DNA of 63,767 nt, from IMG/VR virus record IMGVR_UViG_3300010354_000086, positions 1-63,767 of that record; one strand, 5' to 3'. The stretch's first letter is position 1. Every line of letters starts with the position of its first letter. The DNA is from a virus (Duplodnaviria; Caudoviricetes). Both the position numbers and the translations under genes were made by a program. The notes beneath the pieces are model-generated. The model was not told where the DNA came from and ran no database searches. It saw only the letters and a list, made by a program, of their open reading frames with translations. This document shows positions 7,581 through 63,767 of the stretch, one piece after another.

Positions 7581-10500
7581 TGGCAACAAGAATTAAGCAT
7601 AAGAGAAGTTCTATTTCGGGGTCAATCCCTACGACTGGCGATCTTGAAGCAGGCGAAATAGCTCTTAATACCGCCGACGGTAAAGTTTTTTTAAAGCGTG
7701 ACGACAATGAAATTGTAGATGTTACACGACAGATTTTTGATAAAGATACAAGAATCGAAATCACTGACACAAGTGATGGTGTAATTACAGTTGTTGTAGA
7801 TACCGAAGAAAAGATCAGAGTAAGTGATACTTCTATTAATCTAAAAGAAGAAGTAGTAGTCGAAGATGCTAACGGAATCGAGTTTAAAGAACTTAGTGCC
7901 AACGGGGCTAGCGGTATAACACTTAAGGCTCCAAATAGTCTATCATCTTCTTACACTATGCGATTGCCAATCGCCTCAGGTACTGCTAATCAGATTTTAT
8001 CAACTGACGGATCAGGTCAATTAACTTTTATTGATTCGGATATCTATGGCGGAAATAGAATATATGTGTCTGAAACTAAAGGTGACGATAACAACGACGG
8101 AGTTAGTGCTCCTGTACAATCTATAAAGAAAGCTCTACAACTTGCTTCTGCTCTTGTTTATACAAGTGGAGGATCAGTAAATGGTACTAGAGTAGCTGTT
8201 ATGGTTGCAGCAGGTGATTATGTGGTTGATAATCCAGTTATCATTCCTGATAATGTCAGTGTTATCGGTGACGGATTAAGAACTACATTGCTAAGACCCT
8301 TAAATCCCGGACTTGATATGTTTCGAGTTCGAGGTGGTTGTTATTTTACTGAATTTACTTTCAGAGATGCTGTTGATACTAGCTTTGTTCCTACTTTTAC
8401 ATTTGACTACTCATTTAGCTTTGATAATCCGTTAGATTCTAACTGCGATCGTACTGGATATACCTACTTACCGAGTACTAAACCAGTAATTACACTGTCG
8501 CCATACATACAGAATTGTTCATTAATTAGTTTCTTAGGCGGCAATGGAGTAAAGATTGACGGTAATCTTGTACTAACTCCAAACGTATCACCTGGTAATC
8601 CACAAGAACAAGAAAGACCAGCTGTTGGCGATGTGCCCGAGCAAGGCAAGTCGATGGTTGCTAATGCATTTACCATGGTCAGCTTCGGTGGAACAGGTTG
8701 GCGTGTAATTAATGATGCCTACAGCCAATTAGTATCTTGTTTTCAGATTTTCATGCTCAACGGAGTTTATACCCAAAGTGGTGGTTATGTATCTATAACT
8801 AATTCTGCAACTAACTTTGGTATATACGCTCTACGCAGTTCTGGTTATAGCCCTAATTCTTTTGTTTTTGATCGAGCTACGATTGTTAGCACTGGTTCTA
8901 GTGGCGGCCAACAGACTTTGGAAATCATCGGACTAGTCCGAGACGAACCAGTTGAAGAATTTATCTTACGATTCTATGACGGATCTACTTTAGCAGATAT
9001 AACAAATACATTTAAACCAGCAGCGACCGAATTAACTTTTAATGCTGCAACAGACTTAAACACCACAACAAATATATTTTCTATTACATCTCACGGGTTT
9101 ACAAATGGACAAGCTGTGATTTATGATAGCAATGGAAATACTCCATTGGGTGGCCTTGACGACGAACAAACTTATTATATTGATTATATTAATAGTAACG
9201 AATTTAGATTATTGTTTGACGATAGTTTAAATACTGCCGTTGATATAACTAGTCTAAGCACAGGAACTCATAAGTTTATTATAGATCGACAAGAATTCTT
9301 TGTTGACGAGGTTGTTTCTAGACATAGCACATATCAAGAATTAACTCTGGCTTCTGGAACTTATAATTTTAATATTGGACAGATTATAGCTGGTACTACT
9401 GGAGGTAATCCTAACAGTGCTTATGTCTACAGCTGGAACCAATCTACTAGAAAACTCGTTGTTAGTGTAAACTTAGTTACAATTGGTGCAAGTGAGATAC
9501 GAAATACTTTCGATGCTAGTAGTGTGATTACTGCCGATCATAGTTCTCCTACTCCGGTGACAAATATTAATGTTGATTCAGTTGCTACTGTTACTGGTTA
9601 TAATAGTGCAAATTTTAAGATTTTAAGTACTACCGAAGGGGGACTCTTAACAAATCTAGTAAACTTACCAAAAAATAAAGTTTATTTTCATAGACCTAGT
9701 ATTGTAAACAGTTCAGCTCATACTTGGGAATATGCAGGATCTGGTATTGACTATAATGCATTACCTCAAAACGGTGGTAATACCGTGGCTCGATTTGAAC
9801 AATATGCAGAACTGCCTGGTCGAGTTTACACTTCTGGAACTAATGAGCTAGGAGACTTTAAGGTTGGTAGTTTTATTACTGCATATAACAGAACTGGTAA
9901 TATTACATTTAGAAATAAAGTCAGTGTTGACCAACTTGATGCTCTAAGAATCAGCTTATCTGATGTTGAAATTACAGCATTGTCAACAGATGTTGACCTT
10001 GGTGACAATGAGCCAGGTGGAGCAACAAACAGTAGATTAAGCACACAAGCAGCAGTTCGCGGGTTTTTAAATAACCGTCTTGGTAATTTTATTGACAAGT
10101 CGGTAGCAACTAGTGCTGTTCCAGGAGCAATTGTTCAACTAAATGCTAACGGTCAAATTAACGATGATCTAATTCCAGCCACTAGAGCTTTCCAGTCAAG
10201 TTTACTAAGCGGGTATAAATCAAGACTTAACATAGTTGAACAAATTCCAGCGGTAGACAGCTCCGCAGGTGATATTGCTACAGAAGAGTTTGAGCAAATA
10301 GAATTAACATTATCGGATCCTGTAACTGTAACAGATGGAATGACTATTAGTCAAACTAGCTCTGGTATTTCAGGAATTATTAGAGGTGATCAATCTAACT
10401 CTTCAACCATTGTTGTAGCATCTACCGGCAGATACTTTAAGAAAAGCCTTATAGACAGTGTGTCTCGAAACGGGTCAAACCTAGCTACAATTACCTTTAC

Positions 10501-13500
10501 TGCACCCCATACCTTTGTAGTAGGTGATAACATTGTCGTTGATTGTAATAATAGCGGATTTAACACACCAGCAGGCGGTAGTGAAATTACAGGAACTACC
10601 TATAATACTATTAGCTATAGTAATACTGGGACCTTTTTAGCTAATACTAGCGCCGAGGGGCATGTTTCTATTATATTTGACACTACAGGAAACTTAACAA
10701 TAGATGGAACTATCTATGCTGCTGATGACAGTTCAACAGTTCAACCAACTTTAGTTGGAGATCCAACCGACACAACAGTTAACTATTTTATGAGATCATC
10801 TAATAGTAGCCAGTATCTATTATTAGATCCGTCAGTCTCATCATATACTTTCACCAATACTACAATCGGATCAGTTGCTCGTAACGGCTCTAACATAGCT
10901 ACTATTGTTACAGAAAGTGCTCATAATCTAGTTTCTGGAAATCGTGTTCGAATTGAATGCGATATACCTAGTTTCGATGCGTCTAATGTAGAAGTATCTG
11001 TTACTAATTCAACCACATTCACTTATACTAATACCGGGGGAGTTGTTACTACTACTGGAACCTCAGGTACTGTTAGAAGTGTAGTATCAGCAGCTGATTC
11101 GGCAGCTCAAGGTGTAGTTACTGATTACAGAACAGGTGTGTTATCAGCAGTTGATAATGCTAATATTACTACAGGCAGTAGTTATAATCCTCCTAGTGGA
11201 ACGCACATATATGAAAATATTCCACTGACTAACGTCACAGGATCAGGCACTGGAGCTCGAGCTAATATCACTGTTACAAATGGTGAAGTAACTGATGTTG
11301 ATTTAATTCGTGGCGGAACTGGTTATGCTGTCGGCAGTATTGTATCAGCTAGCAATTCAAATCTAGGTGGTGCAGGCTCTGGATTTCAAATTGAAATTTT
11401 ATCTATAGAAAAAAGAGTCTATGTTGACATCTTAGGCGGAGAATTATTTGTTGCGTCAAGTAGTTCACCTGACTTTATTCAAGACAATACCGCAGATATT
11501 TTTACTATTGCTGATTTAGCTGCTTCAATACAAGAAACATTCGATGCAAATACTGATGTAGATTATACTCCAGTTACCGGTAATACAATCACAATTAATA
11601 GCCATAGTTTCGAAAATGGAGATCCTGTAAAGTATATTTCAAGTCCTAATCCACAGATAGGAGGATTGTTAAACGGGGAAGTATATTACACTAAAAAGAT
11701 TAATGCTAATACTATCGAGTTATATGAAGACTATTACCTACTTAACAAGGTAGAATTTACTAGTTCGAGCACCGGAACTCACAGTTTAACAATCTATACC
11801 ATTAACACCGTTGATAATAGTATCTATATACCTGATCATACTTTTCAAACTGGAGATGCTTTTAGATTTATAGGGTCAAATTTACCCGTCATTACTAGTG
11901 ATACAATTGAAAGTGACAGTGCATTCTTTGTTGGATCAGTGACTCAAAATAGTTTTACTATCCATTCTTTAAGATCTAATGCTCTAGCAAGCATTAATGG
12001 ATTAACAATCTCAGAGAGTGATTTAACTGATGACGGCTCAGGATCAGCAACCGTTGTAAAACAAAATGTTACTGTTGAAGATATTGTCAACACTAGCAGT
12101 CGACTTGAAGCTAATTGGAATTCATTAACAGCAACAAACATTGATGCTAGTAATATTATTTCAGGAGTTATTAATACTTCTAGACTAGCTTATGGTTCAG
12201 CTAATGACTTAACCTTCTTGAGAGGAGATAGTATTTGGGCAACTGCTGTTCAAAGTATCCAAGAAGGCAGCGGTAGTCCTATTTCATTAACTGGAAGTAC
12301 CGATAGCACCATATACTACGGTGATGTTATTATTGATATTGAGCGTACTGACAGTGCTCCTCTAGGTGCATTTACTAGCCTTGGTGTTGCTAAATTCTTA
12401 AAAACACAGTTTGATGTGGGAACTGGAGCTTCAGCTGGCGAAGTAACAATTAAATCTGGAGTAGTTGATGCTGGAACTTTAGACGGGTTTGACAGTACAT
12501 ATTATCTAAACCCTAGCAACCTAACATCAGCTGTACCTGTTAGCAAAGGTGGTACTAACCTTTCAACATATTCAGCTGGAGATTTAATCTACGCTCAAAG
12601 TTCAGGAGTTTTGACTCAACTAGCTATCGGTGCTCAAGATCAAGTTCTAGTGAGTGATGGCACTTATCCGGTTTACAGCCCATCATTAACACTAGGTAGA
12701 ACTGTAGGCATTTCAAGTGGAGAGCTTACTAGCACATCGTCAGGTAAAGCTAAACTCTTTGCAAGTAATGCTAATGGTCTAGAAATTGGTAGTGATAGTC
12801 ATCATATTGTTCTTGGTAACAGCTCTAATAATGACATTTCATCTAATGTTTTAAACTATACTACAGGAGGTGCACCAACTAATGTTGTTACAGTTAATTT
12901 AACTTCTGTTAGTACAACAACATCAACTACAATCGATAATGGTCAAACTGTTTTATTAGTCAGTAGCGCATCTGGTATTGTACCAGGTATGATTGTTACA
13001 GGATCAGCAAGCATTCCTTCTAACACTACAATTGTTGGAACGACTGGAACAAGACTTTACATAAGTTCAACTTTAACTGGATCAATCCCAGGGTCAACTA
13101 GTTTGACCTTCACTCATACTTCGTCAAGTCTAGGGTTATTCCAAGGAAATTATGTAACAATTAGCTCAAGTGGTATTACTAACTTAGATGGTACATGGCC
13201 TATTTCAGCTGCTACTTCAGTAGGAACTAGTTTTAGTATTACTACTAATGATAATGTTACAGCTTCATCAGTAGCAAGAGCCGGTAGTATTACTGCTCTA
13301 AGTAGCTTATTAGTAAGGAATAAAACTCTTATTGTAGGACAGAATGAAGCAGGAACAAGTCCTGCTTCTGTGACTATAAGAAGTGAAAATGCTATTGGAA
13401 CCAACATAGCCGCAGGTGATTTGGTTATTAGACCGGGTCTAAGTACTGGCAATGCTGCTGGCGGTAATTTTATTGTTCAAACAGGTGCTCAAGGTTCAAG

Positions 13501-14377
13501 CGGGAACACCTATCAGGTTGCTACTACAAGGTTAACGATTGATAATGCAGGACTAGCAACTTTTGCAAATAATGTTACTGTTACTGGAGATTTAGCAGTA
13601 AATGGTGCCGACATTACTACTACAAATACTGGCACTGCTACATTATTCAATGCCAATGCCACTGCACTTAATATTGGTGGTGCTGCTACAGCAGTTAGTA
13701 TTGGATCAAGTGCATCAGGTACTACTACCGTAAATCATAATCTAACAGTCACAGGTGACTTATTAGTTAACGGTAGTACAACTACAGTTAATTCAACTGT
13801 GGTTACTATTGATGATCCAATATTTACTTTAGGGGGTGACACAGCTCCATCAAGTGACGACAATAAGGATCGAGGAATTGTATTCCGTTACTTTGACTCA
13901 ACTGCTAAAACTGGATTTTTCGGGTTTGATGACTCGGATAATAGTTTTATGTATATTCCAGATGCAACAATCTCTGGAGAAGTTGCTACCGGAACACTAG
14001 GAACTGTTAAGTTAGGCGCAGTAAATATTGACGGAAAAACAGTTATCGACACATTTGAGTATACCGGCCTATCTTCAGGTGCAGGTTCAACGGTGATTGA
14101 TACATTCGATAAATTAACCTATCGATCTGCAAAGTTTTTGGTACAGATTACCTGTACTGCTGGAACTCACAGTGGAACCTATCAAGCATCAGAGGTACTA
14201 GTAATACATAACGGCACAGATGCGTTCATGACAGAATATGCAGTAATTAAAACTGGACTAGCAGAACTGGCTATTTTTACAGTAGGAGTTTCAGGTAATA
14301 ATGTTCAATTAAGTGCAACTGCTACATCAGGCGATACAATTACTGTTAGACTAACTAAAACACTGCAAACAATTTAA
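7580..14377 (+). CDS. Giant tail-fibre/structural protein (2265 aa)
   Basis: N-terminal MATRIKHKRS..P..L.AGEIALNTADGKVF (fibre-anchoring domain); paralogous beta-helix region (YVSETKGDD, SPYIQNCS); HGF.NG..V.Y repeats; C-terminal IDTFDKLTYRSAKFLVQ domain. Confidence 0.8.
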   Translation: MATRIKHKRSSISGSIPTTGDLEAGEIALNTADGKVFLKRDDNEIVDVTRQIFDKDTRIEITDTSDGVITVVVDTEEKIRVSDTSINLKEEVVVEDANGIEFKELSANGASGITLKAPNSLSSSYTMRLPIASGTANQILSTDGSGQLTFIDSDIYGGNRIYVSETKGDDNNDGVSAPVQSIKKALQLASALVYTSGGSVNGTRVAVMVAAGDYVVDNPVIIPDNVSVIGDGLRTTLLRPLNPGLDMFRVRGGCYFTEFTFRDAVDTSFVPTFTFDYSFSFDNPLDSNCDRTGYTYLPSTKPVITLSPYIQNCSLISFLGGNGVKIDGNLVLTPNVSPGNPQEQERPAVGDVPEQGKSMVANAFTMVSFGGTGWRVINDAYSQLVSCFQIFMLNGVYTQSGGYVSITNSATNFGIYALRSSGYSPNSFVFDRATIVSTGSSGGQQTLEIIGLVRDEPVEEFILRFYDGSTLADITNTFKPAATELTFNAATDLNTTTNIFSITSHGFTNGQAVIYDSNGNTPLGGLDDEQTYYIDYINSNEFRLLFDDSLNTAVDITSLSTGTHKFIIDRQEFFVDEVVSRHSTYQELTLASGTYNFNIGQIIAGTTGGNPNSAYVYSWNQSTRKLVVSVNLVTIGASEIRNTFDASSVITADHSSPTPVTNINVDSVATVTGYNSANFKILSTTEGGLLTNLVNLPKNKVYFHRPSIVNSSAHTWEYAGSGIDYNALPQNGGNTVARFEQYAELPGRVYTSGTNELGDFKVGSFITAYNRTGNITFRNKVSVDQLDALRISLSDVEITALSTDVDLGDNEPGGATNSRLSTQAAVRGFLNNRLGNFIDKSVATSAVPGAIVQLNANGQINDDLIPATRAFQSSLLSGYKSRLNIVEQIPAVDSSAGDIATEEFEQIELTLSDPVTVTDGMTISQTSSGISGIIRGDQSNSSTIVVASTGRYFKKSLIDSVSRNGSNLATITFTAPHTFVVGDNIVVDCNNSGFNTPAGGSEITGTTYNTISYSNTGTFLANTSAEGHVSIIFDTTGNLTIDGTIYAADDSSTVQPTLVGDPTDTTVNYFMRSSNSSQYLLLDPSVSSYTFTNTTIGSVARNGSNIATIVTESAHNLVSGNRVRIECDIPSFDASNVEVSVTNSTTFTYTNTGGVVTTTGTSGTVRSVVSAADSAAQGVVTDYRTGVLSAVDNANITTGSSYNPPSGTHIYENIPLTNVTGSGTGARANITVTNGEVTDVDLIRGGTGYAVGSIVSASNSNLGGAGSGFQIEILSIEKRVYVDILGGELFVASSSSPDFIQDNTADIFTIADLAASIQETFDANTDVDYTPVTGNTITINSHSFENGDPVKYISSPNPQIGGLLNGEVYYTKKINANTIELYEDYYLLNKVEFTSSSTGTHSLTIYTINTVDNSIYIPDHTFQTGDAFRFIGSNLPVITSDTIESDSAFFVGSVTQNSFTIHSLRSNALASINGLTISESDLTDDGSGSATVVKQNVTVEDIVNTSSRLEANWNSLTATNIDASNIISGVINTSRLAYGSANDLTFLRGDSIWATAVQSIQEGSGSPISLTGSTDSTIYYGDVIIDIERTDSAPLGAFTSLGVAKFLKTQFDVGTGASAGEVTIKSGVVDAGTLDGFDSTYYLNPSNLTSAVPVSKGGTNLSTYSAGDLIYAQSSGVLTQLAIGAQDQVLVSDGTYPVYSPSLTLGRTVGISSGELTSTSSGKAKLFASNANGLEIGSDSHHIVLGNSSNNDISSNVLNYTTGGAPTNVVTVNLTSVSTTTSTTIDNGQTVLLVSSASGIVPGMIVTGSASIPSNTTIVGTTGTRLYISSTLTGSIPGSTSLTFTHTSSSLGLFQGNYVTISSSGITNLDGTWPISAATSVGTSFSITTNDNVTASSVARAGSITALSSLLVRNKTLIVGQNEAGTSPASVTIRSENAIGTNIAAGDLVIRPGLSTGNAAGGNFIVQTGAQGSSGNTYQVATTRLTIDNAGLATFANNVTVTGDLAVNGADITTTNTGTATLFNANATALNIGGAATAVSIGSSASGTTTVNHNLTVTGDLLVNGSTTTVNSTVVTIDDPIFTLGGDTAPSSDDNKDRGIVFRYFDSTAKTGFFGFDDSDNSFMYIPDATISGEVATGTLGTVKLGAVNIDGKTVIDTFEYTGLSSGAGSTVIDTFDKLTYRSAKFLVQITCTAGTHSGTYQASEVLVIHNGTDAFMTEYAVIKTGLAELAIFTVGVSGNNVQLSATATSGDTITVRLTKTLQTI

Positions 14378-24362: not shown

Positions 24363-24379
24363 TATTTATCTGATAAATA
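24363..24379. promoter_or_regulatory. Back-to-back divergent late promoters
   Basis: TATTTATC-T-GATAAATA palindrome: ATAAATA on - (24363-24369) and on + (24373-24379). Confidence 0.75.
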
Positions 24380-25167: not shown

Positions 25168-25524
25168 ATGAAAATTCGAGAGATTCTAACAGAAAAATCA
25201 GAAAGAAAGCTTGGTAAAAATATTCGTCAATCAGGGACTCATGCTAAACAATATCAAGGAATTGATCAGTACTATGACATGTACCGACTAGGCATAGCTA
25301 TGGCTGGCGCCCCAGATATTCCTATAGACTCTGAAGGTCCTGCAAAAGATATACCTGCGGTATGGATGTACAGCAAAGGTGAAGAAGATATAGTTAATCG
25401 AGCAGCAAAGAATCAAGGGATCAAAGGCAAAACTATAGTCGGAAAAGGACAAAGTGAAGAGCTTCCACAAATTAATACTTCAAGTCCAGTTGCTCAGCCA
25501 AAACGAAACAAATACGGCATTTAA
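25168..25524 (+). CDS. Hypothetical protein with capsid-targeting-like N-terminus
   Basis: Starts MKIREILTE; YDMYRLG motif shared with a module of ORF 61766. Confidence 0.6.
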   Translation: MKIREILTEKSERKLGKNIRQSGTHAKQYQGIDQYYDMYRLGIAMAGAPDIPIDSEGPAKDIPAVWMYSKGEEDIVNRAAKNQGIKGKTIVGKGQSEELPQINTSSPVAQPKRNKYGI

Positions 25525-30655: not shown

Positions 30656-30691
30656 TTATATGCCCATATTATTTTTCTATAAATATAATAT

Positions 30692-32341
30692 ATGGCTTCA
30701 CCTAATAAATTTTTAAACAACTTATATCTAGCATCGGGCACTAAGGGAAATCTTGGAGATTTCCAGCATGCCGCGCGATTATATAATGATGCTAATTTTC
30801 GACTAGCACCGAAAACAAAGTTTTTATATTATGTCGTTTTTAATATAAACCCAGCAGCTCTTTCAGAAGATCCAGAATTCAAAGAAAAGCATATTACAGA
30901 GATTAATCTACTGGTAAAAAATGTACAACTTCCTAAATTTACCGTAGATATAACAAAAGAAAAACAGTATAACAGAAATAAAATAATACAGAAGAAAATT
31001 ACTTACGACGATATAAGTTTAGATTTTCATGACGACATGTCGGGTGTAACTACTCGATTATGGAAGATATACTATCAATGGTATTTCTTTGATCATAGAC
31101 ATAACAATAACAAAGATAACAATCCTAACTCAGGAGTTCCACCTCAATACGATCGAAAAGTAAAAAGACTAGCAGCAGATGAGAGAATTTTTCGTTACGG
31201 ATTAGATCCAAAAAAAGGGTTAAATCATCTTGATATTGACGGTCAATTTTTCGACTCGATTCATATCTATCAGCTTTACCAGCAAAAGTATACGCAAATC
31301 ACTTTAGTTAACCCAATGGTAAAATCATGGCAGCACGACCAGATGGATTATAGCCTAAGCGAAGTTACTCGTAGTTCTATGACTTTGTCATATGAAACTG
31401 TGTTTTATAATGTAGGTGATGTTGAAGAAGATAACCCTCGAGGGTTCGCAACTACACATTACGATAAAATTCCAAGTCCGTTAAGTCTTCCTGGAGGGAA
31501 CCCTTTAGGTCCTGCAGGCGGGTCTTCGGGTAATGGCTTCGGAGGACCGAAATCAAAAGGAATTCAAAGTCCTATATCTAACAACATACTTGGAAATACT
31601 AAATCAGGAACTGGACCTATACCTGGATTAGATTTAAAATCAGGAACTTTAGGGGTGAATAATGTTGCATCATTAGGTGGAATGAACAATTATAATTTTC
31701 CAAAAGTTGGTGGTAAAGGTGGTAATTTCGATGTAACTAAGGCGGTTCCGGCTTTGACTAATGTTGCTAAAATGCCACAGATGAATTCCACTCAGATGTA
31801 CAAAACTTATAATAGTAATGACAACTCTTTAGGTCGGTTAGCATCAGCTACTACTTATCGAGCGCAGACAAGAGGACAACCGTTTGGTGGGAATGTTAAT
31901 GTTCTTAATCAACGATGGGGAAATTTACCGGGTAACGAGCAGCAGATATTTAAAAATATAGCGTTAACAGCGTTAAGGAACGCTGATCCATTTGTAAAAA
32001 CTATAGCAACAGCAGCTCTTAATACAATAACAAATACTAGAAAAACAACTAATAGATATGCTAATCCTGTGACTAACAGACCAGTAACTGGTATAGGTGG
32101 GGTTAACTTAACTCCATTTGGTGGTGATGTTGCGGCAGCTAATGGAAGGTATGCACAAACTGGATTTGTGAGAGATGAGGCTACAGGATTGAACAGAAAC
32201 CAAGCAAATCAAATTTTTAATAGAGGGGGAGAAGTTTTAGCAAATCCTAATCAAAATTATGCAAGACCTAGTGCATATTCAAGTTTTGAGAAACTTGATC
32301 TAAACGAAGATGGATTCGCTAATGACTTTGGTGGTGAATGA
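30692..32341 (+). CDS. Tube-fold baseplate/tail-tube initiator-like protein (gp54/gp48-like) with G/N-rich tail
   Basis: LVKNVQLPKF..QYNR..ITYDDISLDFHDD..LVNPMVKSW..MDYS..MTLSYE tube-type motifs; TATAAATA at 30678-30685. Confidence 0.6.
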   Translation: MASPNKFLNNLYLASGTKGNLGDFQHAARLYNDANFRLAPKTKFLYYVVFNINPAALSEDPEFKEKHITEINLLVKNVQLPKFTVDITKEKQYNRNKIIQKKITYDDISLDFHDDMSGVTTRLWKIYYQWYFFDHRHNNNKDNNPNSGVPPQYDRKVKRLAADERIFRYGLDPKKGLNHLDIDGQFFDSIHIYQLYQQKYTQITLVNPMVKSWQHDQMDYSLSEVTRSSMTLSYETVFYNVGDVEEDNPRGFATTHYDKIPSPLSLPGGNPLGPAGGSSGNGFGGPKSKGIQSPISNNILGNTKSGTGPIPGLDLKSGTLGVNNVASLGGMNNYNFPKVGGKGGNFDVTKAVPALTNVAKMPQMNSTQMYKTYNSNDNSLGRLASATTYRAQTRGQPFGGNVNVLNQRWGNLPGNEQQIFKNIALTALRNADPFVKTIATAALNTITNTRKTTNRYANPVTNRPVTGIGGVNLTPFGGDVAAANGRYAQTGFVRDEATGLNRNQANQIFNRGGEVLANPNQNYARPSAYSSFEKLDLNEDGFANDFGGE

Positions 32342-41084: not shown

Positions 41085-41831
41085 ATGAAAATAGTCTTAG
41101 CTACAGGCGGATTCGATCCATTACATTCAGGGCACATTAAATATCTACAAGATGCCCGTAAACTCGGTGATAGGTTAATTATAGGGTTAAACTCAGATGC
41201 ATGGCTTGAGCGAAAAAAAGGTCGAGCCTTTATGCCATTTGCTGAGCGACAATCAGTTCTCTCTGCGTTAGACTGCACAGGTTATGTTGTTTCTTTTGAC
41301 GACAGTGATGGAAGCGCAATTAAGTTTTTAGAAGATATTAAAAAAAGCTATCCTTATGCAGAAATTATTTTTGCTAATGGTGGTGACAGAAATGCTACAA
41401 ATATTCCTGAAATGAGCGTGGAAGGAATTAAGTTTGAGTTCGGTGTTGGCGGAAACACTAAGGTAAATTCTAGTAGCTGGATCTTAGATGACTGGAAAAC
41501 ATCGAAAACTAATCGAACATGGGGTTATTGGAGAGTTCTTAATAACAATTCTAACTATAAAATAAAAGAACTAGTAATAAATCCAAAAGAAAGCATATCT
41601 TTTCAACGACATCAACATCGAAATGAGCACTGGTATATTTTAAAAGGATCCTGCCTAATTAAAACAGAGTATTTAAATGTCGAGTCAACTGTTCATAAAG
41701 AACCTCATTCAACTTATGTTATAGGACGAGGAGTTTGGCACCAAATACAGAATAACTCTAATGAACCCTGTCACATTTTAGAAGTCCAATACGGTGACCA
41801 ATGTGTAGAAGAGGATATTGAACGAAGATGA
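41085..41831 (+). CDS. Cytidylyltransferase-like domain fused to cupin (mannose-6-P isomerase type)
   Basis: GGFDPLHSGH (HxGH), GLNSD.WL.RKKG, FANGGDR, SSS; C-terminal R.WG..SFQRH.HR.EHW..H.I.N..ILEVQYG..EEDIER. Confidence 0.88.
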   Translation: MKIVLATGGFDPLHSGHIKYLQDARKLGDRLIIGLNSDAWLERKKGRAFMPFAERQSVLSALDCTGYVVSFDDSDGSAIKFLEDIKKSYPYAEIIFANGGDRNATNIPEMSVEGIKFEFGVGGNTKVNSSSWILDDWKTSKTNRTWGYWRVLNNNSNYKIKELVINPKESISFQRHQHRNEHWYILKGSCLIKTEYLNVESTVHKEPHSTYVIGRGVWHQIQNNSNEPCHILEVQYGDQCVEEDIERR

Positions 41832-51546: not shown

Positions 51547-51891
51547 ATGATATCAGGCAAAGTATGGGGCAATACAGAACTTGTAGAAGCCAATAGTGTA
51601 TTAGAGTTTCATCGCATTAATATTAAAGAAGGAGGTGTTTGTAGCAAACACAAACACAAACACAAATGGAATGGATTCTTTGTGGAACGAGGTAGTTTAC
51701 TTATAAGAGTATGGAAGAACAACTATGACTTAATAGATGAAACTATATTACGAGATGGTATGTATACTAAGGTAGCTCCAGGTGAATATCATCAATTTGA
51801 AGCACTTAAAGATACAGTGGCCTATGAACTTTATTGGGCTCAATTTGACCATGACGACATTGAAAGAGAAACGGTAGGTTATAGTAAATGA
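51547..51891 (+). CDS. Cupin protein (sugar isomerase/epimerase-like)
   Basis: KVWG, CSKH.H..K.N.F.V..G, V.PGEYHQF.A. Confidence 0.8.
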   Translation: MISGKVWGNTELVEANSVLEFHRINIKEGGVCSKHKHKHKWNGFFVERGSLLIRVWKNNYDLIDETILRDGMYTKVAPGEYHQFEALKDTVAYELYWAQFDHDDIERETVGYSK

Positions 51892-52667
51892 AGGTAGGAA
51901 TAGTTGGATACGGATGGATTGGAAAAGCAACTCACAAGCTATTTCCAAATGCTCAAATCTACGATAAATTTATTGAAGAATACAATCGCCCATTAGTTAA
52001 TTGTGATATTGCGTTTTTAGCAGTGCCGACACCATGCAACGATAACTTTGATCTCGATTGCAGCGCAGTAGAGGATGCCATTAGACATTGTGGATGTAAT
52101 TTTATCGTTATTAGATCTGCAACTCAGCCTGGGTTTGCAGATAGTATGGCTAAAAAATATCCTGATAAGAAGATTGTAGTCCAACCAGAATATCTAGGTG
52201 AAACTCCAAATCATCCATTCTTACAAATGGAATCTCGACAATTTATGATTATCGGTGGAGATCCTGAAGATCGACGAAGAGTTATTGAGTGTTATCAACA
52301 GGCATATAATGCCACTGTGTCTATACGACAAGTATCTAGGTATGAAGCTGAAATAATTAAAATTACAGAAAATAGAGCAGCATTTTATAAAATAATTCAA
52401 TGTCAAGAACTGTATGATACTTGTGAAGCTGCTGGTATAGACTACTATACTGTTCGAGATGCTGTTTACGGGGACGACCCTCGATTAAACCTTTGGTGGA
52501 CTTTTATATATCCTAAAAATAGAGGTGCTAATAGTAAATGTATTCCAAAAGATGTCTATGCTTGGTGTGCCTGGGCTGAAAGCCTCGGTATCAATCCCGA
52601 AGCGACTAGATCATTACTAAATTATAATCAAACCCTTATTAAGAGAAGCATTCATGGGCTCTCTTAA
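51888..52667 (+). CDS. UDP-glucose/GDP-mannose dehydrogenase family (short form)
   Basis: VGIVGYGWIG, FLAVPTP, IRS, PEYL.E, AE..K..EN, D.R, CIPKD. Confidence 0.85.
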   Translation: MKVGIVGYGWIGKATHKLFPNAQIYDKFIEEYNRPLVNCDIAFLAVPTPCNDNFDLDCSAVEDAIRHCGCNFIVIRSATQPGFADSMAKKYPDKKIVVQPEYLGETPNHPFLQMESRQFMIIGGDPEDRRRVIECYQQAYNATVSIRQVSRYEAEIIKITENRAAFYKIIQCQELYDTCEAAGIDYYTVRDAVYGDDPRLNLWWTFIYPKNRGANSKCIPKDVYAWCAWAESLGINPEATRSLLNYNQTLIKRSIHGLS

Positions 52668-56819: not shown

Positions 56820-56920
56820 TAGATATAATACTTCGCCCCTATTACCGATGGAAGAAAAAACAAGAATATAAAAAGAGAATTGAAGAGTTGAAAAAACGAG
56901 ATCCTTTTATTTACAAATGA
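56804..56920 (+). CDS. Small basic 38-aa protein (below ORF-track cutoff)
   Basis: SD TAAGGA; MVKKIIDIILRPYYRWKKKQEYKKRIEELKKRDPFIYK; ATGA-coupled to the next gene. Confidence 0.7.
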   Translation: MVKKIIDIILRPYYRWKKKQEYKKRIEELKKRDPFIYK

Positions 56921-58389
56921 TTATTTGGGGAATTTCGGCTAACAGCCACGATGCTGCTCTTTCTGTCTGGCACGATAAAACAATTAAGTTTGCTGCTCAT
57001 AGTGAACGCTACAGCAAGATAAAAAATGACGGCAACCTGCATCCTGATCTAATCCGTGAAGCAGAGTATTGGGGTAAACCAGATCTTATAGTCTGGTATG
57101 AAAATCCTTTACTGAAAACATTTAGACAATTTACAGCAGGCCAAGGTTGGAACTGGAAAGAAAATAATATTAAACAGTATCTAAAAAAATATAATATAGA
57201 TGCTCCAGTTTGTACAGGTTCTCATCACCAAAGCCATGCTGCTGCTGGATATTATACTAGTAAATTTAATAATGCTACAATAATTTGTATAGATAGTATC
57301 GGAGAGTATGAAACACTGACTATATGGAAGGGAATAGGATCAAATCTTAACAAGTGGTACAGTCAAAGTTATCCGCATAGCATCGGTCTGTGGTACAGTG
57401 CTATGACACAGCGCATAGGTCTCAAACCTAATGAAGAAGAATATATTCTTATGGGAATGGCTGCATACGGCAAGCCTTATAGGCTATATAATTCAATATT
57501 AGAAGATTTTTTCAAAAGTCTAACCGCTCCAGAAATTAAATTTAAACATAACTTACATAAAGGTTGCAAATGGTGGCGTCCTGATCTAACCACTGAACAG
57601 GATATGTTCGATATAGCAGCCGCTACACAAACTGTGTATACTGATATATTAAAATCTATAACTACTTACGCACGAATAAATCTATCAAGTGAGAATCTAA
57701 TCCTTATGGGAGGATGTGCCCTTAACTGTTCTGCTAACAGCGAAATTACCAAAGACTGGAACAATGTTTGGATCATGCCTAACCCTGGAGACGCAGGTAG
57801 TTCATTAGGAAGCGTCTGTGGATATTTTCAAGAAAAGGTTAATTGGCCAGGACCTTACTTAGGATCAGACTTAGGTGGACCGTATCCTTCGGAAGAAGTT
57901 ATAAAAGAACTAATAAGATCTAAGATAACAGGCGTAGCCAATGGGCGGGCTGAGTTTGGACCAAGAGCACTAGGGCACCGTAGTCTTTTAGCAGATCCAC
58001 GGGGATCAGATATTAAAGACCGTGTAAATGCTATTAAACAAAGACAAAAATTTAGACCTTTTGCGCCTGCTATTTTAGAAGAACATGTTGAAGATTATTT
58101 TTATATGCCCGAAAATATAACACATAGTCCTTACATGCAGTTTGTGGCGAGATGTAGACAACCTGATCAGTTTCCTGCTATAATTCATGCAGATGGTACT
58201 AGTAGAGTGCAGACTGTGGGCAAACAGGATAGTCCGGGTTTTAGATATCTATTAGAGCAATGGTATGAAGAAACTGGTTGCCCTATGTTATTAAACACTA
58301 GTCTAAACATTAAAGGACAACCAATGGTTAATGATAAAAACGATGCTGATCAATTTGAAAAATATTACAATGTAAAGGTATTCACATAA
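56917..58389 (+). CDS. Carbamoyltransferase (NodU/CmcH/TobZ family)
   Basis: HDAA, ERYS..K, HH.SHAA, D.IGE, E..LMG.A.YG, GGCALN, GDAG, EFGPRALG.RS, KQRQ.FRPFAP, H.DGT.RVQT, LLNTSLN..G.P. Confidence 0.95.
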   Translation: MIIWGISANSHDAALSVWHDKTIKFAAHSERYSKIKNDGNLHPDLIREAEYWGKPDLIVWYENPLLKTFRQFTAGQGWNWKENNIKQYLKKYNIDAPVCTGSHHQSHAAAGYYTSKFNNATIICIDSIGEYETLTIWKGIGSNLNKWYSQSYPHSIGLWYSAMTQRIGLKPNEEEYILMGMAAYGKPYRLYNSILEDFFKSLTAPEIKFKHNLHKGCKWWRPDLTTEQDMFDIAAATQTVYTDILKSITTYARINLSSENLILMGGCALNCSANSEITKDWNNVWIMPNPGDAGSSLGSVCGYFQEKVNWPGPYLGSDLGGPYPSEEVIKELIRSKITGVANGRAEFGPRALGHRSLLADPRGSDIKDRVNAIKQRQKFRPFAPAILEEHVEDYFYMPENITHSPYMQFVARCRQPDQFPAIIHADGTSRVQTVGKQDSPGFRYLLEQWYEETGCPMLLNTSLNIKGQPMVNDKNDADQFEKYYNVKVFT

Positions 58390-59802: not shown

Positions 59803-60023
59803 TGAATAGTCGGCGGACTATATTCTTTGAAGCTGTTTATAGCATGTCGTAAAAGAACTTTAAATTCTTGAATTTCATTTCTGGATTCCATTCTAGTAGC
59901 AAGTACTCCTAGTAAAATTCCATCAATTAATTCTGAATCATGCCCTTGTTCCTCTAACTCACGACAGGTTTCTATAAAAAACTCATATACTTCGTCAGCA
60001 CTTTCGGTCTCTTCTTTTGACAT
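59799..60023 (-). CDS. Small acidic hypothetical protein
   Basis: 74 aa with SD GAGGA upstream on -; fills the gap. Confidence 0.6.
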   Translation of the reverse strand: MSKEETESADEVYEFFIETCRELEEQGHDSELIDGILLGVLATRMESRNEIQEFKVLLRHAINSFKEYSPPTIH

Positions 60024-60036
60024 ATGTTGTCCTCGC

Positions 60037-60047
60037 TAAATATTTAT
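60037..60047. promoter_or_regulatory. Overlapping divergent late promoters
   Basis: TAAATATTTAT: TAAATA on + (60037-60042) and ATAAATA on - (60041-60047), between divergent genes. Confidence 0.5.
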
Positions 60048-60067
60048 TCTTATTAGCAGGCAGAAAA

Positions 60068-61069
60068 ATGAAGATCTTTATTACTGGAGTAGCTGGGTTT
60101 TTAGGAAGTCATCTAGCTGATAGAATGCTAGACCTTGGACACTATGTAGTAGGCGTTGACAATCTTATCGGCGGATACTTATCTAATGTTGATGAAAGAG
60201 TAGAATTCTATCAAGTAGATTGTCTAGACCTTGACAATATGGTCACAGTCATGAAAGGTGCAGACATTGTCTATCATTGTGCTGCAACTGCTCATGAAGG
60301 GTTATCAGTTTTTAGTCCAAATTTTATTACTAAAAATATTTTTCAAGCTAGTGTTTCGACTATATCTGCTGCTATACAAAGTAAGGTAAGGAAATTTGTC
60401 TACTGTTCTAGTATGGCTAGATACGGAAATCAAGACTTTCCTTATAAAGAAACACAGGCTCCATCTCCTGTTGATCCTTATGCTATTGCCAAAGTTGCTG
60501 GGGAAGATGTACTTAAATCGCTAGCACCTATGAACCGTATGGACTGGATTGTCGCTGTACCTCATAATATTGTAGGACCAAGACAGAGATATGATGATCC
60601 ATTTCGGAATGTTATGAGCATAATGATTAATCGTGTACTACAAGGCAAGCCTCCGATTGTATATGGAAATGGATTACAGAAAAGGTGCTTTAGCTTTATT
60701 GATGATTGTATTTACTGCTTAGAAAAACTAGCGCTCGATCCTAATATCAAAAACGATACATTCAATATAGGACCGGATGAAGAGTTTGTTACTATTAAGT
60801 ATCTAGCTGAATTAATCATGCAAGAACTTAAGTTTCAAGGAGAAATTGAGTACCTACCAGAAAGGCCAAAAGAAATAAAATTTGCAACCTGCTCTGCTGA
60901 TAAAGCTAGGCAAGTACTTGGTTACCAAACGAGAACTAGTCTTATAGAAGGCGTTAGACAGACAATAGATTACATCAGACAACAAGGTCCTAGACCCTTT
61001 GACTATAGTTACCCGTTAGAAATAGTCAATGACCTAACTCCTAAAACATGGAGTAGGAGATTAATGTGA
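60068..61069 (+). CDS. NAD-dependent epimerase/dehydratase (extended SDR)
   Basis: ITGVAGFLGSH, DNL, H.AA, SS, PYAIAK (YxxxK), N.VGP, G.G.Q.R.F. Confidence 0.92.
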   Translation: MKIFITGVAGFLGSHLADRMLDLGHYVVGVDNLIGGYLSNVDERVEFYQVDCLDLDNMVTVMKGADIVYHCAATAHEGLSVFSPNFITKNIFQASVSTISAAIQSKVRKFVYCSSMARYGNQDFPYKETQAPSPVDPYAIAKVAGEDVLKSLAPMNRMDWIVAVPHNIVGPRQRYDDPFRNVMSIMINRVLQGKPPIVYGNGLQKRCFSFIDDCIYCLEKLALDPNIKNDTFNIGPDEEFVTIKYLAELIMQELKFQGEIEYLPERPKEIKFATCSADKARQVLGYQTRTSLIEGVRQTIDYIRQQGPRPFDYSYPLEIVNDLTPKTWSRRLM

Positions 61070-61779
61070 ACATTATCATAGACGGGTTTGTTTGCCCTGC
61101 CTGGGAAAGGGCCAAGAGAAGTAATTTTTTGTCTTCTGACTCTAGAGAAGTTTTTAATCAACGACAAAAAGAAGAGCCGCATGATTGGTACTACCTTACA
61201 CATCCTATAGAGTATCATATTAATAGGTATGGGCATAGATCTCCCAACCCGTTCACATTTGAAAAGCATAGCGATTACATACTAGTAACAGGGTGCTCAA
61301 TTACCGCAGGTATTGGGCTGGAATATAGCACAATGTGGGCAACAATAGTGTCTAAAAAGTTAAATCTCCCCTACTACAACCTTGCGTTAGGCGGGTCAGA
61401 TCAATATACTATGATGCATAATCTTATTAACTGGTTATGGAAGTATCCTAAGCCTAGATACTTAGTTATACAATGGCCAGACACTAACAGAATTCTTACA
61501 GGTTCATTATTAGAATTTCATAACGTTAATACTAGAAACCTAGATGTTAGAGATACTATGATAAAGATGGAAAGTATAGGAGCTCCTCAAATATATAGGA
61601 AAGTTAGTCAATCACTGTTTCGAGAAGACAATGATATGATAGTTACAGACCTCATATATAATCATACAGAATTTCTAATAGACAAAGCTAGAGACTATCA
61701 TCCGGGAATACTTAGTAATCAACTCATGGCTAAAGCAGTGTTAGCAGACATAGATAAATATACAAATGAGAGCTCGTGA
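61066..61779 (+). CDS. SGNH/GDSL-like protein (putative sugar acylation/deacylation)
   Basis: N.YG.R, GCS.T.G.G, YNLA.GG, ARD.HPG (DxHP) motifs. Confidence 0.6.
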   Translation: MNIIIDGFVCPAWERAKRSNFLSSDSREVFNQRQKEEPHDWYYLTHPIEYHINRYGHRSPNPFTFEKHSDYILVTGCSITAGIGLEYSTMWATIVSKKLNLPYYNLALGGSDQYTMMHNLINWLWKYPKPRYLVIQWPDTNRILTGSLLEFHNVNTRNLDVRDTMIKMESIGAPQIYRKVSQSLFREDNDMIVTDLIYNHTEFLIDKARDYHPGILSNQLMAKAVLADIDKYTNESS

Positions 61780-63304
61780 ATTTGTTAAAAAAGAAATGAT
61801 GGCACCTCCTAGCCGTCCTGAATATCGAGATGGGCAACACAGTCTTGACTTTGAAGATACAGTCACAGAGCTTAATCTAAATCAAACTCTAGATTTTATT
61901 AAACAAGCTCACGGAGATCAACTCTACGGAAAATTGCCCTATTGGCGTCATCCTCGTGCTGTAGCAATGACAGGTAAAAAGATCTTTGGTTCTAAATTTA
62001 CCAGCGATGCAGTAAAAGTTGCCTTCTTACATGATGTAGTAGAAGATACAGATATTGGACTCGATCAACTGGCTAAGCTGGACTTCAGTCCAGAAGTAAT
62101 TAAGGCTGTAGGATTACTGACCAAAGACAAATCTATAAACTATAACCAAAACATCGATCGTATTATTAATAGCGGTAGTATGCTGGCTATGATGGTCAAG
62201 TTTGCCGATAACTGGGAAAACTTTCATGGTGATAAGTCAGATTGGGATCCTAAACGAGCCAGCTCTAGCCAAAAGAAATATCTAGCTAGCTTGACTAGAC
62301 TAGGACAGGTTTTAGGAGTAGAACCTCCTACTACAGAAAACCTAATACCATATCCTAAGGGCACAGTAAAAGTAGATGTAGATGATGTCTATGACTGGTA
62401 TAAGCTAGGTCAAAATATAGCAGATCTTGACGATGCCGATCCTAAAGAATTCGGCAAAGGACCACCACAGACAGTGCTATCTTTTGGGTCAGAACCTATA
62501 GAACACAAGTATCTTAAACAGCTAAAACGCCTAAGGATGCCTACACACGATATTGACGAGGGATGGCGTGATTGGCTAGGCGGCGCCGCTATTGGAGCAG
62601 CAGTAGGTCTAGGCGGTGCGCATGGTACTGTTAAGGATATTACAAAGTCTCAGACCCAAATTCAGCAACCAGCAGAAAAACCATCAGCAGCACCTGTAAT
62701 GCAAAACGCTCAACCCGAAGTTAAACCTAGTGCTGTGCCTAAGAAATCTGTAACTGGTAGCCCTCACGAAAAGATTCTAACTAAGGCAGCTGTGGATGCA
62801 GGAATTACTGGACAAGAATTAGCAGCATTTCTAGCACAGACTGCTCACGAAACTGGTAACTTTGAATACATGAAAGAACTTGGCGGTCGCCTAGATTTCA
62901 AAAAATATGAACCAGTTTTTAAGAAAGACAAGCATAAGAAAATCATTATAGATCCCTCTACAGGAAAACCCAAGAACTTTAACGCCAAAGCAGCACGATT
63001 AGGTAATGATCAGCTAGGAGATGGTGTTCGCTATCGAGGTCGCGGTTATATACAGCTCACTGGAAAGTACAACTATCAAAAAGCGGGCCGAGCTCTGGGG
63101 CTCGATCTAGTTAACAAACCAGAATTAGTAGAACGACCAGAAATAGCAGCTAAGGTAGCTGTTTGGTTTTGGCAAAACAGAGTACAGCCCAAGGTCAACG
63201 ATTTTGACAATACTCGTGCTGTAACTAAGCCTATTAATTCAGGGTTAAAGGGTCTCGCAGACCGAGAAGAAAAATTCAAAAGCTTCAAAGTAGCTATGAA
63301 ATGA
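61766..63304 (+). CDS. Multi-module protein: RelA/SpoT-type HD hydrolase + unknown module + hydrophobic segment + GH19 muramidase
   Basis: AHGDQ..PY..HP..VA..FLHDVVEDT..LLTK..VKFADN; LAAFLAQTAHETG..YRGRGYIQLTGKYNY..AVWFW..IN.G..G..R; ATAAATA 5 nt upstream. Confidence 0.85.
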   Translation: MRAREFVKKEMMAPPSRPEYRDGQHSLDFEDTVTELNLNQTLDFIKQAHGDQLYGKLPYWRHPRAVAMTGKKIFGSKFTSDAVKVAFLHDVVEDTDIGLDQLAKLDFSPEVIKAVGLLTKDKSINYNQNIDRIINSGSMLAMMVKFADNWENFHGDKSDWDPKRASSSQKKYLASLTRLGQVLGVEPPTTENLIPYPKGTVKVDVDDVYDWYKLGQNIADLDDADPKEFGKGPPQTVLSFGSEPIEHKYLKQLKRLRMPTHDIDEGWRDWLGGAAIGAAVGLGGAHGTVKDITKSQTQIQQPAEKPSAAPVMQNAQPEVKPSAVPKKSVTGSPHEKILTKAAVDAGITGQELAAFLAQTAHETGNFEYMKELGGRLDFKKYEPVFKKDKHKKIIIDPSTGKPKNFNAKAARLGNDQLGDGVRYRGRGYIQLTGKYNYQKAGRALGLDLVNKPELVERPEIAAKVAVWFWQNRVQPKVNDFDNTRAVTKPINSGLKGLADREEKFKSFKVAMK

Positions 63305-63328
63305 TCTTAGAAGCCAGGAAAATATAGT

Positions 63329-63767
63329 ATGAGATTACGAGAAATAATTACAGAACTTTTCGACCCTAAATTGGCTGTTGATCTTGAATGGGCAGAGGGT
63401 AGTGACTATATTGCAGCCAGAGGTTATGTCACAGTGACAAATCCTGATGGCTTCGGTGGTGAATATGGCAACGAAGAAGAAGTTGAACTAGAAGTAGAAT
63501 TCGGGGAATTTCCACACAGAAATCGTAAAGAATACGAAGTTCAATTTAAAGTAGGCGAAAGTTATGATATAACGGGTGGTGGCAACGCTAATGTGATTTT
63601 TGCCACGGTTATACAGGCCTGTAAAGATTTCGTGGAAATGTATCACCCAGATCGATTATTCTTCACAGCAAAAGAGCAGTCCAGAGCAAGAATGTATGAT
63701 ACACTGGCTAAACGTGTGGCCAAGCAGGTAGGGTGGCACGTTATACCATTTGATGAAATACAAAAGG
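63329..63767 (+). CDS. Hypothetical protein with capsid-targeting-like N-terminus (3'-truncated)
   Basis: Open frame MRLREIITELFDPK..ITGGGNANVIFATV..SRARMY.. running off the window end. Confidence 0.7.
   Translation, partial: MRLREIITELFDPKLAVDLEWAEGSDYIAARGYVTVTNPDGFGGEYGNEEEVELEVEFGEFPHRNRKEYEVQFKVGESYDITGGGNANVIFATVIQACKDFVEMYHPDRLFFTAKEQSRARMYDTLAKRVAKQVGWHVIPFDEIQK

Follow-up and report, generated by a model that had tools for sequence, protein, structure and literature searches.

Why would a phage make, as a single polypeptide, an enzyme predicted to hydrolyse nucleotides and another predicted to cleave the cell wall? The question is raised by an open reading frame (ORF) of 512 amino acids, beginning with ATG, at positions 61766..63304 (+ strand) of a 63,767-nucleotide stretch of DNA, here called the window. 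The window is the entire public record IMGVR_UViG_3300010354_000086 (completeness estimate 17%), and is a fragment of the genome, about 350 kb in size, of an uncultured T4-type giant freshwater phage. From the anatomy of the gene and of its homologs we lean, by a small measure, towards a predicted function as capsid-targeted cargo whose modules are jointed by sites for the head protease. The anatomy and the statistics are solid, and the mechanism is plausible.

Anatomy of the fused gene

From its N-terminus, the protein comprises a leader, MRAREFVKKE, which resembles the T4 capsid-targeting sequence (residues 1-10; 61766..61795); a disordered spacer ending in V-T-E35, the first predicted head-protease site (residues 11-35; 61796..61870), which is also present in the homolog P0012; an HD hydrolase domain of the RelA/SpoT, small-alarmone-hydrolase type (residues 36-186; 61871..62323); a short link, PPTTE, with a Glu at its end and no [LIV]xE motif (residues 187-191; 62324..62338); a middle module ending in I-D-E265, the second predicted protease site (residues 192-265; 62339..62560); GWRDW and a Gly/Ala-rich hydrophobic segment resembling a signal-arrest-release (SAR) domain or a glycine zipper (residues 266-287; 62561..62626); a disordered linker rich in Pro, Gln, Lys and Ala (residues 288-319; 62627..62722); and a GH19 muramidase domain in which a pair of glutamates, E362 and E371, is conserved (residues 320-512; 62723..63301), all on the + strand. 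The ORF, its parts and their coordinates are exactly those given in an earlier reading of the locus made from the letters alone (the sequence-only reading), whose domain boundaries also coincide with the domain limits in an AlphaFold2 model built on the homolog alignment. In that model (mean predicted local distance difference test score, pLDDT, 77.9) the HD domain (38-183) and the GH19 domain (about 320-512) are confident and the module at 192-262 is moderate, while residues 1-36 and 264-314 are disordered, with pLDDT below 50 at 8-36 and of 30-39 in the linker.

Misassembly, which had been named as something to exclude, was checked on contigs from four runs of four studies, the run with the best match being left out as a possible source. 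An independent contig of 1571 nt spans 61755-63325 with 0 differences, and further independent contigs of 4008 and 1350 nt span 61500-63414 and 62021-63370, respectively; since independent contigs run across the whole ORF and carry the HD-middle-GH19 fusion contiguously, the fusion is not due to misassembly. In four independent metagenomes the depth of the contigs goes up 3- to 25-fold over the middle module (62352-62493) and the next gene (63346-63600), with a jump of about five-fold over 62352-62422 and from 63346, and loose ends run there into other sequence. From these jumps and loose ends it follows that the modules also sit in other contexts in the same communities. Contigs were further seen to end at gene or module borders, where assemblers break at shared cassettes, and fusion genes with these cassettes will often be fragmented or mis-joined in public assemblies.

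The identity of the HD domain does not come from Pfam, as the HD_4 profile is not reached (E 0.055, 13.6 bits against a cut-off of 27.2) and the homologs score at most 21 bits. The domain does match phrog_990, 'metal-dependent phosphohydrolase' (6.8e-27, residues 35-185) and, by phmmer against the PDB, Drosophila Mesh1 (3nqw, 3.6e-6) and Rel (1vj7, 3.7e-6), with further matches to 3nr1, 5vxa, 6z3n and 7smg, among which are human MESH1, small alarmone hydrolases and a (p)ppApp hydrolase. The metal-binding or catalytic motifs HP, LHDVVEDT and K.AD..N align with those of the PDB relatives, and the domain is modelled as helical (pLDDT 80-96). Because of the matches and the aligned motifs, the assignment to the RelA/SpoT type, first made in the sequence-only reading, holds despite the sub-threshold Pfam score. 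With the N-terminal half of the protein as query, tblastn found 259 records of isolated phages, none with 80% query coverage or more, and among the matches listed the alignments fall in the HD region.

The 74-residue middle module is predicted to form a small beta-alpha-beta-alpha-beta fold (AlphaFold2 mean pLDDT 66.4). Foldseek found nothing for this model in the PDB at E <=0.001, the best hit being an ACT domain at E 0.35, and the module has no Pfam match and no usable ESM Atlas match. A full scan of 1.84 billion representatives with the module alone gave 285 clusters, in proteins of 99-1856 amino acids and at any position in them. It mostly continues past D-I-D into a Pro-led extension (67/96), which, where traceable in the homologs read, ends in ...NVGE. 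Three proteins of 1440-1856 amino acids from other lineages (P0126, P0142 and P0144) start differently, with MD[LI][RK]EL..., and have the middle and metallopeptidase-like modules behind a nucleotidyltransferase-like domain at the N-terminus.

The GH19 domain is intact, as had been claimed: PF00182 is matched over residues 342-478 (E 1.7e-17, 64.5 bits against a cut-off of 25.5), and PDB matches include 7r6s (1.3e-26) and the SPN1S endolysin 4ok7 (1.4e-18). H361, E362 and E371 are at least 90% conserved across 78 aligned homologs, and E362 and E371 align with the Glu pair of 4ok7, which we take to be catalytic; the domain is a predicted muramidase. A tblastn search of isolated phages with the whole protein gave 1333 records, all of them through GH19 and none at 80% coverage or more.

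Upstream of the gene, GATAAATA, a motif resembling a T4 late promoter, lies at 61753..61760 (+), 5 nt 5' of the ATG. All five [TG]ATAAATA sites on the + strand of the window are within 90 nt upstream of an ORF start, those of structural genes at 24372 and 30678 included, and in related loci leader-bearing genes have the same motif 5-6 nt ahead of their ATG. The T4 late-promoter consensus is TATAAATA, which is not enriched in the window (2 seen against about 7 expected per strand from base composition). It is the placement alone that is suggestive, and we regard the element as a predicted promoter only. The distance from [TAG]ATAAATA to the ATG is no more than 5-6 nt in several genes (sites at 61753-61760, 30678-30685 and 24372-24379 on the + strand and at 24370 on the - strand); should the motif act as a T4-type late promoter, their transcripts would have almost no leader or none.

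Leader, junction glutamates and the head protease

Homologs were sought among 5.8 billion proteins, which gave 714 matches at E <=0.001 among 8000 scored candidates; the homolog statistics rest on 120 listed of these 714, and module orders were counted by motif. Virtually all homologs that start with Met (116/119) begin M[RKL]xx[ED][FILV], for example MRAHEFIIE, MKAYEFIIE or MLLRELFSE. The T4 capsid-targeting sequence is MKTYQEFIAE (PMC8442874), and the T4 internal proteins are described, in passages of PMC3012670, as diverse and sharing that tag alone. The family shows the same pattern, a tag of about ten residues common to otherwise unrelated proteins, and the leader is kept as an amino-acid sequence although its codons and the DNA ahead of it vary. 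The same modules, moreover, are found directly behind a leader Glu or behind a junction Glu.

The homologs are built from a limited stock of parts in many arrangements. Recurring modules are the HD hydrolase, the 74-residue middle module, a basic Gly/Tyr-rich stretch, a small Cys motif and a basic module with the motif NFADG; others are HAD/DUF2608 and NT5C nucleotidases, DUF5661, DUF6934, a ParB_N-like piece, an HExxH metallopeptidase-like module, LysM, and the unit formed by the hydrophobic segment, linker and GH19. Thirty module orders were counted; the order HD-middle-hydrophobic-GH19 occurs once, and HD may precede or follow the middle module.

Are the joints between these modules cut? 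According to PMC9026906, T4 gp21 cleaves after L/I-x-E, and the proteases of phiKZ and SPN3US cleave after S/A-x-E and A-x-E (PMC9026906, PMC5694885). The sequence-only reading had noted that every boundary in the protein ends in Glu. This is so for all four (VKKE10 at 61795, TVTE35 at 61870, PTTE191 at 62338 and DIDE265 at 62560), but [LIV]xE fits only at Glu35 and Glu265, and the Glu content of the protein (27 of 512 residues) weakens an argument from Glu as such. In the homologs, Glu stands before the HD module in 27/27 cases, always as [LIV]xE; before the hydrophobic/GH19 module in 92/92, 70 of them as [LIV]xE; and before the NFADG module in 17/17, 14 of them as [LIV]xE, while the Cys motif has [LIV]xE one residue upstream in 9/9. 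The background per position is 6.3% for Glu and 1.24% for [LIV]xE. A separately retrieved set of proteins with the middle module gave Glu before NFADG in 52/52 and [LIV]xE in 39/52, against a background of 1.4%. The joint before the middle module differs, with Glu in merely 4/13 homologs. The protein has four [LIV]xE motifs in all. Two of them, HDVVE93 and PELVE456, lie within folded cores; the remaining pair, at 35/36 and 265/266, fall inside or next to the stretches of low confidence (8-36 and 264-314). Since only Glu35 and Glu265 fit the motif outside folded cores, two cuts rather than four are predicted. The expectation that homologs shuffle modules at the boundary glutamates is likewise borne out for the Glu35 and Glu265 joints and not for PTTE191.

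A protease of the right type is present in relatives. A capsid gene whose protein is close to the window's occurs on at least 600 viral contigs (the best 80 are 83-92% identical), and in the five large contigs that we examined as close relatives (135-210 kb, major capsid proteins 84-91% identical to the window's) a Peptidase_S77 gene adjoins the capsid gene in every case. It is also found beside the capsid gene in the more distant G002 and G003 (two of five records searched) and in Pseudomonas phage PA5oct (287 kb), the nearest isolate by terminase (57.6% identity).

The capsid protein itself offers a cross-check. We take the maturation cut of T4 gp23 to lie after Glu65. In the T4 record, gp23 reads ...GSFLTE followed by AEIGG ahead of the homologous ...VRRAIP core, and gp21 is stated to cleave it. 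In G006, a close relative with a capsid protein 91% identical to the window's, that protein begins ...TRKYLSE followed by SATAGATSAGNVATLNRVILPVIRRVMP, the segment after the Glu being SATAGATSAGNVATL; at the same place the capsid protein of G002 has YLSE followed by SASTGATSAGN, and that of PA5oct FLVE followed by NASAGATQAGN. A small leader gene of G006 reads MKIKEILE followed by SATAGATSAGSIATV..., and many related loci have a gene of this sort behind the GH19 gene. The residue after the leader Glu thus aligns with the residue after the presumed maturation Glu of the capsid protein, and of the evidence from the sequences themselves this alignment speaks most strongly for the leader Glu as a site of the head protease. 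These small genes, of about 85 codons, are curious in their own right, in that the SATAGATSAGSIATV behind the Glu nearly copies the capsid SATAGATSAGNVATL and is followed by a basic tail; they were seen at G006 31018-31281 (from L160), L001:11107-11367, L003:10942-11199, L006:11269-11529 and L012:11189-11446, with an internal copy at L002:11415-11840; their products may act as a decoy or as a mimic of the capsid arm, or be internal proteins.

Three leader genes lie on the + strand of the window, at 25168, 63329 and in the gene under study. The gene that follows the latter (63329..63766, +), cut by the window end, joins the leader MRLREIITE to a DUF6934-like module as a single-module member of the family, and in P0026, P0068 and P0019 the same module precedes the hydrophobic-GH19 unit in a fused chain. 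The third (25168..25524, +; MKIREILTE, 118 amino acids) adjoins a head-tail adaptor gene, has no PHROG match and has relatives in G006 (184335) and L008. In related loci leader genes stand in same-strand tandem runs, four of them consecutive in G006. Two proteins, a leader-bearing NMNAT-like nucleotidyltransferase (L002:7413-8573; FGR.NPP..GH) and a Cys-motif protein (L156:1947-2594), have a Sec-signal-like segment (KSK, a hydrophobic run and SPAQA) right behind a junction Glu (VGE or VDE), and then a small domain.

For PA5oct, virion status could be taken from the RefSeq notes 'ESI-MS/MS'. Eleven of its ORFs match the leader pattern, and the five starting MK[IL]x[ED] were looked up: gp333 (between the portal and protease genes), gp279 and gp104 are flagged, and gp103 (64 amino acids) and gp213 are not. 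These flags on leader-bearing genes are suggestive only, and none of these proteins is detectably homologous to the modules of the window's protein. We considered gp104, a virion protein with leader and HExxH, as a relative of the metallopeptidase-like modules of the family and claim no homology (BLASTP E 0.087 to 4). PA5oct also encodes a second 'head maturation protease', the virion protein gp212 (NC_071039.1, 180349-181020), which the Peptidase_S77 search missed; it lies beside the leader-bearing gp213, oriented divergently from it (179881-180267, locus L063), and may be a diverged protease paralog, as reported for SPN3US.

Proposed explanations: packaged cargo, accreted fusion or membrane anchor

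The mechanism we propose is the following. A precursor made late would be loaded into the prohead by its N-terminal leader, acting like the T4 capsid-targeting sequence, and a T4-type (Peptidase_S77) head protease would cut the exposed [LIV]-x-Glu sites after Glu35 and Glu265. This would yield a 35-residue propeptide, a 230-residue product with the alarmone hydrolase and the middle module, and a 247-residue product with the hydrophobic segment, linker and GH19, whose new N-terminus would be a weakly hydrophobic, Gly/Ala-rich, SAR-like segment. When the virion next infects a cell, both enzyme products would pass out of the capsid along with the DNA. In the newly infected cell the HD domain would degrade (p)ppGpp or (p)ppApp, or undo a defence of the alarmone-synthetase type, and GH19 would digest the wall locally. 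We infer packaging, cleavage, ejection and effector roles alike. There is a precedent for such packaging, as the mature ejection protein gp47 of SPN3US is described as beginning with a transmembrane helix after protease cleavage (PMC5694885).

Several points weigh against this interpretation. The leader of the protein is slightly atypical, having one extra residue and ending in K-K-E without a hydrophobic P3, and neither VKKE10 nor PTTE191, which the sequence-only reading had also listed as Glu-ended boundaries, has [LIV]xE; at PTTE191 the joint Glu is, besides, not conserved. As a pattern the leader is not stringent, matching 6 of 392 ORFs in G006 and also 1 of 259 in a control made of reversed sequence; an isolated match therefore says little, and it is the clusters that count. 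The virion count in PA5oct, three of five against the 93 of 461 proteins reported as virion-associated in the published PA5oct study, has a p of about 0.06 and concerns five proteins hand-picked from 11 pattern matches. The gene sits among replication and sugar-metabolism genes, outside the head module. No Peptidase_S77 gene was found in the window, which is uninformative because the record starts inside the capsid gene; going by the gene order in relatives, the phage's own protease gene would lie just upstream of base 1. A muramidase delivered into the cytoplasm has no obvious substrate there, GH19 comes last in 92/92 proteins of the first homolog set, and hydrophobic segment, linker, LysM and GH19 together have the look of an exported enzyme. 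A conserved Glu at a joint could be the first residue of each module and not a cleavage site. Finally, the overall density of [LIV]xE in long family members equals the background (in P0144, 23 against 23.0 expected).

That the total density is not raised would also be expected if the protein were an uncleaved, soluble multi-domain enzyme that grew by accretion of neighbouring genes, the leader and the Glu joints being footprints of recombination between paralogous gene starts with no role in targeting or processing. Same-strand tandem leader genes, often with overlapping stop and start codons, do favour read-through or recombinational fusion, and assembly graphs break at module borders. The leader is, however, kept as amino acids while codons and upstream DNA vary, a junction Glu with a hydrophobic P3 is kept even after differing preceding modules, and in G006 the leader Glu aligns with the end of the capsid propeptide of the same genome; a nucleotide hydrolase and a wall hydrolase would, moreover, share no compartment if neither cut nor exported. 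We regard accretion without processing as quite unlikely.

A relative bears on whether the fused GH19 could simply be the lysis enzyme of the phage. The best PHROG match of the protein is phrog_181, 'endolysin' (4.7e-47, residues 294-507). In G006, however, a separate lysis cassette (locus L158, G006:16122-19355) encodes a stand-alone GH19 endolysin of 209 amino acids (L158 ORF 1222-1851; phrog_181, 5.5e-77) without leader or hydrophobic segment, a membrane protein with a coiled coil (ORF 1854-2318), an Rz-like spanin with a lipobox (ORF 2315-2578, overlapping the preceding ORF; phrog_456, 1.9e-10) and a small two-helix membrane protein (ORF 2590-2823). Since G006 has this ordinary endolysin-spanin cassette, the fused GH19, which is 38% identical to the G006 endolysin, appears to be a second enzyme, and on sequence grounds it is probably not the one that lyses the host. 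Weak second GH19 matches of similar size were found in G001 and G007. The window does not extend to the region matching the G006 lysis cassette. In T4-like cyanophages the best GH19 matches lie within large virion proteins, the pair in S-CREM2 being annotated 'endolysin (virion protein)', and in S-B68 a GH19 gene is close to a baseplate gene; from these contexts, GH19 is used as a virion enzyme in the wider group. The data do not show GH19 to be a core gene, as it is absent from G002 (83% complete), G003, PA5oct and two of the five close relatives (themselves fragments).

The hydrophobic segment calls for a different alternative, in which the protein is never packaged and is a bitopic inner-membrane protein: the 265 residues of the HD and middle parts would be cytoplasmic, the Gly/Ala segment a signal anchor or SAR domain, and the linker and GH19 periplasmic, forming a second, tethered wall hydrolase that acts late, in lysis timing, wall remodelling or superinfection effects, the leader and the junction Glu having some other meaning. 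For this protein taken singly it is a fair reading. The uncharged run after GW[KR]D[WT] is SAR-like in the 92 homologs that have it (median 19 residues, mean hydropathy 1.1, Gly+Ala content 67%), the basic stretches ahead of it are consistent with a positive-inside orientation, LysM where present (4/120 homologs) always stands in the linker position between this segment and GH19, nucleotide-directed modules (HD, NT5C and HAD) always precede the segment in the first set, and a segment that resembles a cleavable Sec signal (KSK-hydrophobic-SPAQA) lies inside a neighbouring member of the family. The 'endolysin' PHROG match points the same way. Against it, the SAR domains known to us are N-terminal, whereas this one starts at residue 266 and would become N-terminal only after the proposed cut at Glu265, and a canonical GH19 endolysin with spanin is already present in G006. 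Nor does a membrane anchor explain the leader in members without a hydrophobic segment, or [LIV]xE at the joints of soluble modules. The middle-module set contains three GH19-bearing proteins, and in one of them, P0134, the middle module follows GH19; in P0192, which lacks a hydrophobic segment, LysM-GH19 stands in mid-chain, and the modules behind it are middle, metallopeptidase-like and NFADG. Both arrangements are hard to reconcile with a fixed membrane topology as a rule for the family. All in all, we consider it unlikely that the protein is a membrane-tethered enzyme, although this is the chief rival to packaged cargo.

The packaged-cargo interpretation also has a more far-reaching form. 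If the cut at Glu265 unmasks a SAR- or signal-like N-terminus on the muramidase, the capsid would carry proteins addressed to the next host's envelope together with an alarmone hydrolase that acts before phage gene expression, and cassettes would shuffle at the cut sites. Other members with signal-peptide-like segments behind a junction Glu would be unmasked likewise, and the early alarmone hydrolase would counter the stringent response or the toxins of RelA/SpoT-homolog defences. To this extended version we attach a low probability.

Source phage and relation to known systems

The gene content of the window is of the T4 type: a capsid-gene fragment, two adjacent giant fibre-like genes (2868-7580 and 7580-14377; 1570 and 2265 amino acids) with repeated tail-fibre PHROG matches, sheath, tube and large terminase genes, and genes for a gp32-like single-stranded DNA-binding protein, UvsX, UvsY, helicases, primase and several enzymes of sugar metabolism. 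The latter include a heptose kinase/adenylyltransferase-like gene (41085-41831), a UDP-glucose dehydrogenase-like gene (51888-52667), a Nol-like carbamoyltransferase gene (56917-58389) and a nucleotide-sugar epimerase gene (60017-61069), followed by a 237-residue ORF without assignment (61066-61779). These sugar-nucleotide and modification genes (41085-61779) are scattered between replication genes and may serve the modification of DNA or of surface glycans. At half or more of the sampled words, the stretch containing the fused gene was found in 15 or more DNA runs, from freshwater, estuary, aquatic and aquaculture metagenomes; RNA runs contained only 5-16% of its sampled words.

If capsid targeting and processing are real, uncultured giant phages that are very common in fresh and estuarine waters have turned the T4 internal-protein system into a cassette system, in which a position between leader and head-protease site is all that an enzyme needs to be delivered as an effector in the first minute of infection. 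Packaged anti-defence and takeover proteins could then be sought in metagenomes by a rule read from sequence, T4-like capsids could be loaded with multiple cargoes after a design taken from nature, and the delivery of both an alarmone hydrolase and a wall hydrolase as proteins would become open to test. If it is instead a membrane protein, it would be the first endolysin-type enzyme tethered through the membrane to a cytoplasmic nucleotide hydrolase.

How does the family relate to known systems? The sequence-only reading had called it an undescribed system, which stands for the combination, as this was not found in the literature, and does not stand for its elements, which have close precedents in the T4 internal proteins, the phiKZ and SPN3US ejection proteins and the polyvalent proteins. 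No paper on leader-tagged shuffled polyproteins in PA5oct-like or uncultured T4-type phages was found in a search that covered literature other than subscription journals. With the T4 proteins IPI, IPII, IPIII and Alt the family shares an N-terminal tag of about ten residues ending in Glu (here MRAxEF[IV]xE or MKAYEFIIE), diverse and fast-evolving cargo behind that tag, an L/I-x-E type of junction motif, an S77 protease (here encoded by close relatives), and a late-promoter-like motif upstream. T4 cargo, however, consists of single modules cut once, whereas here up to ten or more types of module are strung together and permuted with a protease-type site per joint, and include a muramidase with a hydrophobic segment and an alarmone hydrolase.

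The giant phages phiKZ, 201phi2-1 and SPN3US likewise have many head-internal proteins, a gp21-like protease cutting after Glu in a three-residue motif, and paralogs with common N-terminal propeptides (PMC5694885, PMC9026906). They differ in the motif (S/A/G-x-E or A-x-E), in propeptides that are often longer than 100 residues and in lineage, and shuffled enzyme polyproteins are not described in the accessible text of these two papers.

Polyvalent proteins (Iyer, Burroughs, Anand, de Souza and Aravind 2017, PMC5512222) are alike in combining unrelated effector domains in one chain proposed to be packaged and delivered; the domains include lysozyme, proposed to breach the wall, zincin-like metallopeptidase, ParB and nucleotide-signalling enzymes. 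The protein analysed here and its homologs, with two or more unrelated effector-type domains in variable architectures, are of this kind. In the portions of that paper at hand, however, self-processing is proposed to occur by the chain's own metallopeptidase domain with no T4-type leader, and the RelA/SpoT domains are synthetases, not hydrolases, whereas in the present family the joints match the head-protease motif.

As to the enzymes taken separately, Mesh1, RelA/SpoT homologs and small alarmone hydrolases are the best PDB matches of the HD domain and share its aligned HP, HDxxED and K.AD..N motifs, and stand-alone phage relatives (the 259 isolated-phage records) are annotated HD_4, GTP pyrophosphokinase or phosphohydrolase; here the predicted hydrolase is fused behind a leader and before other modules. 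SAR-type and SPN1S-type (4ok7) GH19 endolysins share the fold, the Glu pair and a Gly/Ala-rich segment upstream, but in the window's protein that segment is internal, behind 265 residues of other modules. What sets the present family apart, as read from sequence, is that it combines a T4-type tag and permuted cassettes with sites of the head-protease type at every well-defined joint, and that its cargo includes an alarmone hydrolase and a muramidase whose hydrophobic N-terminus can be masked.

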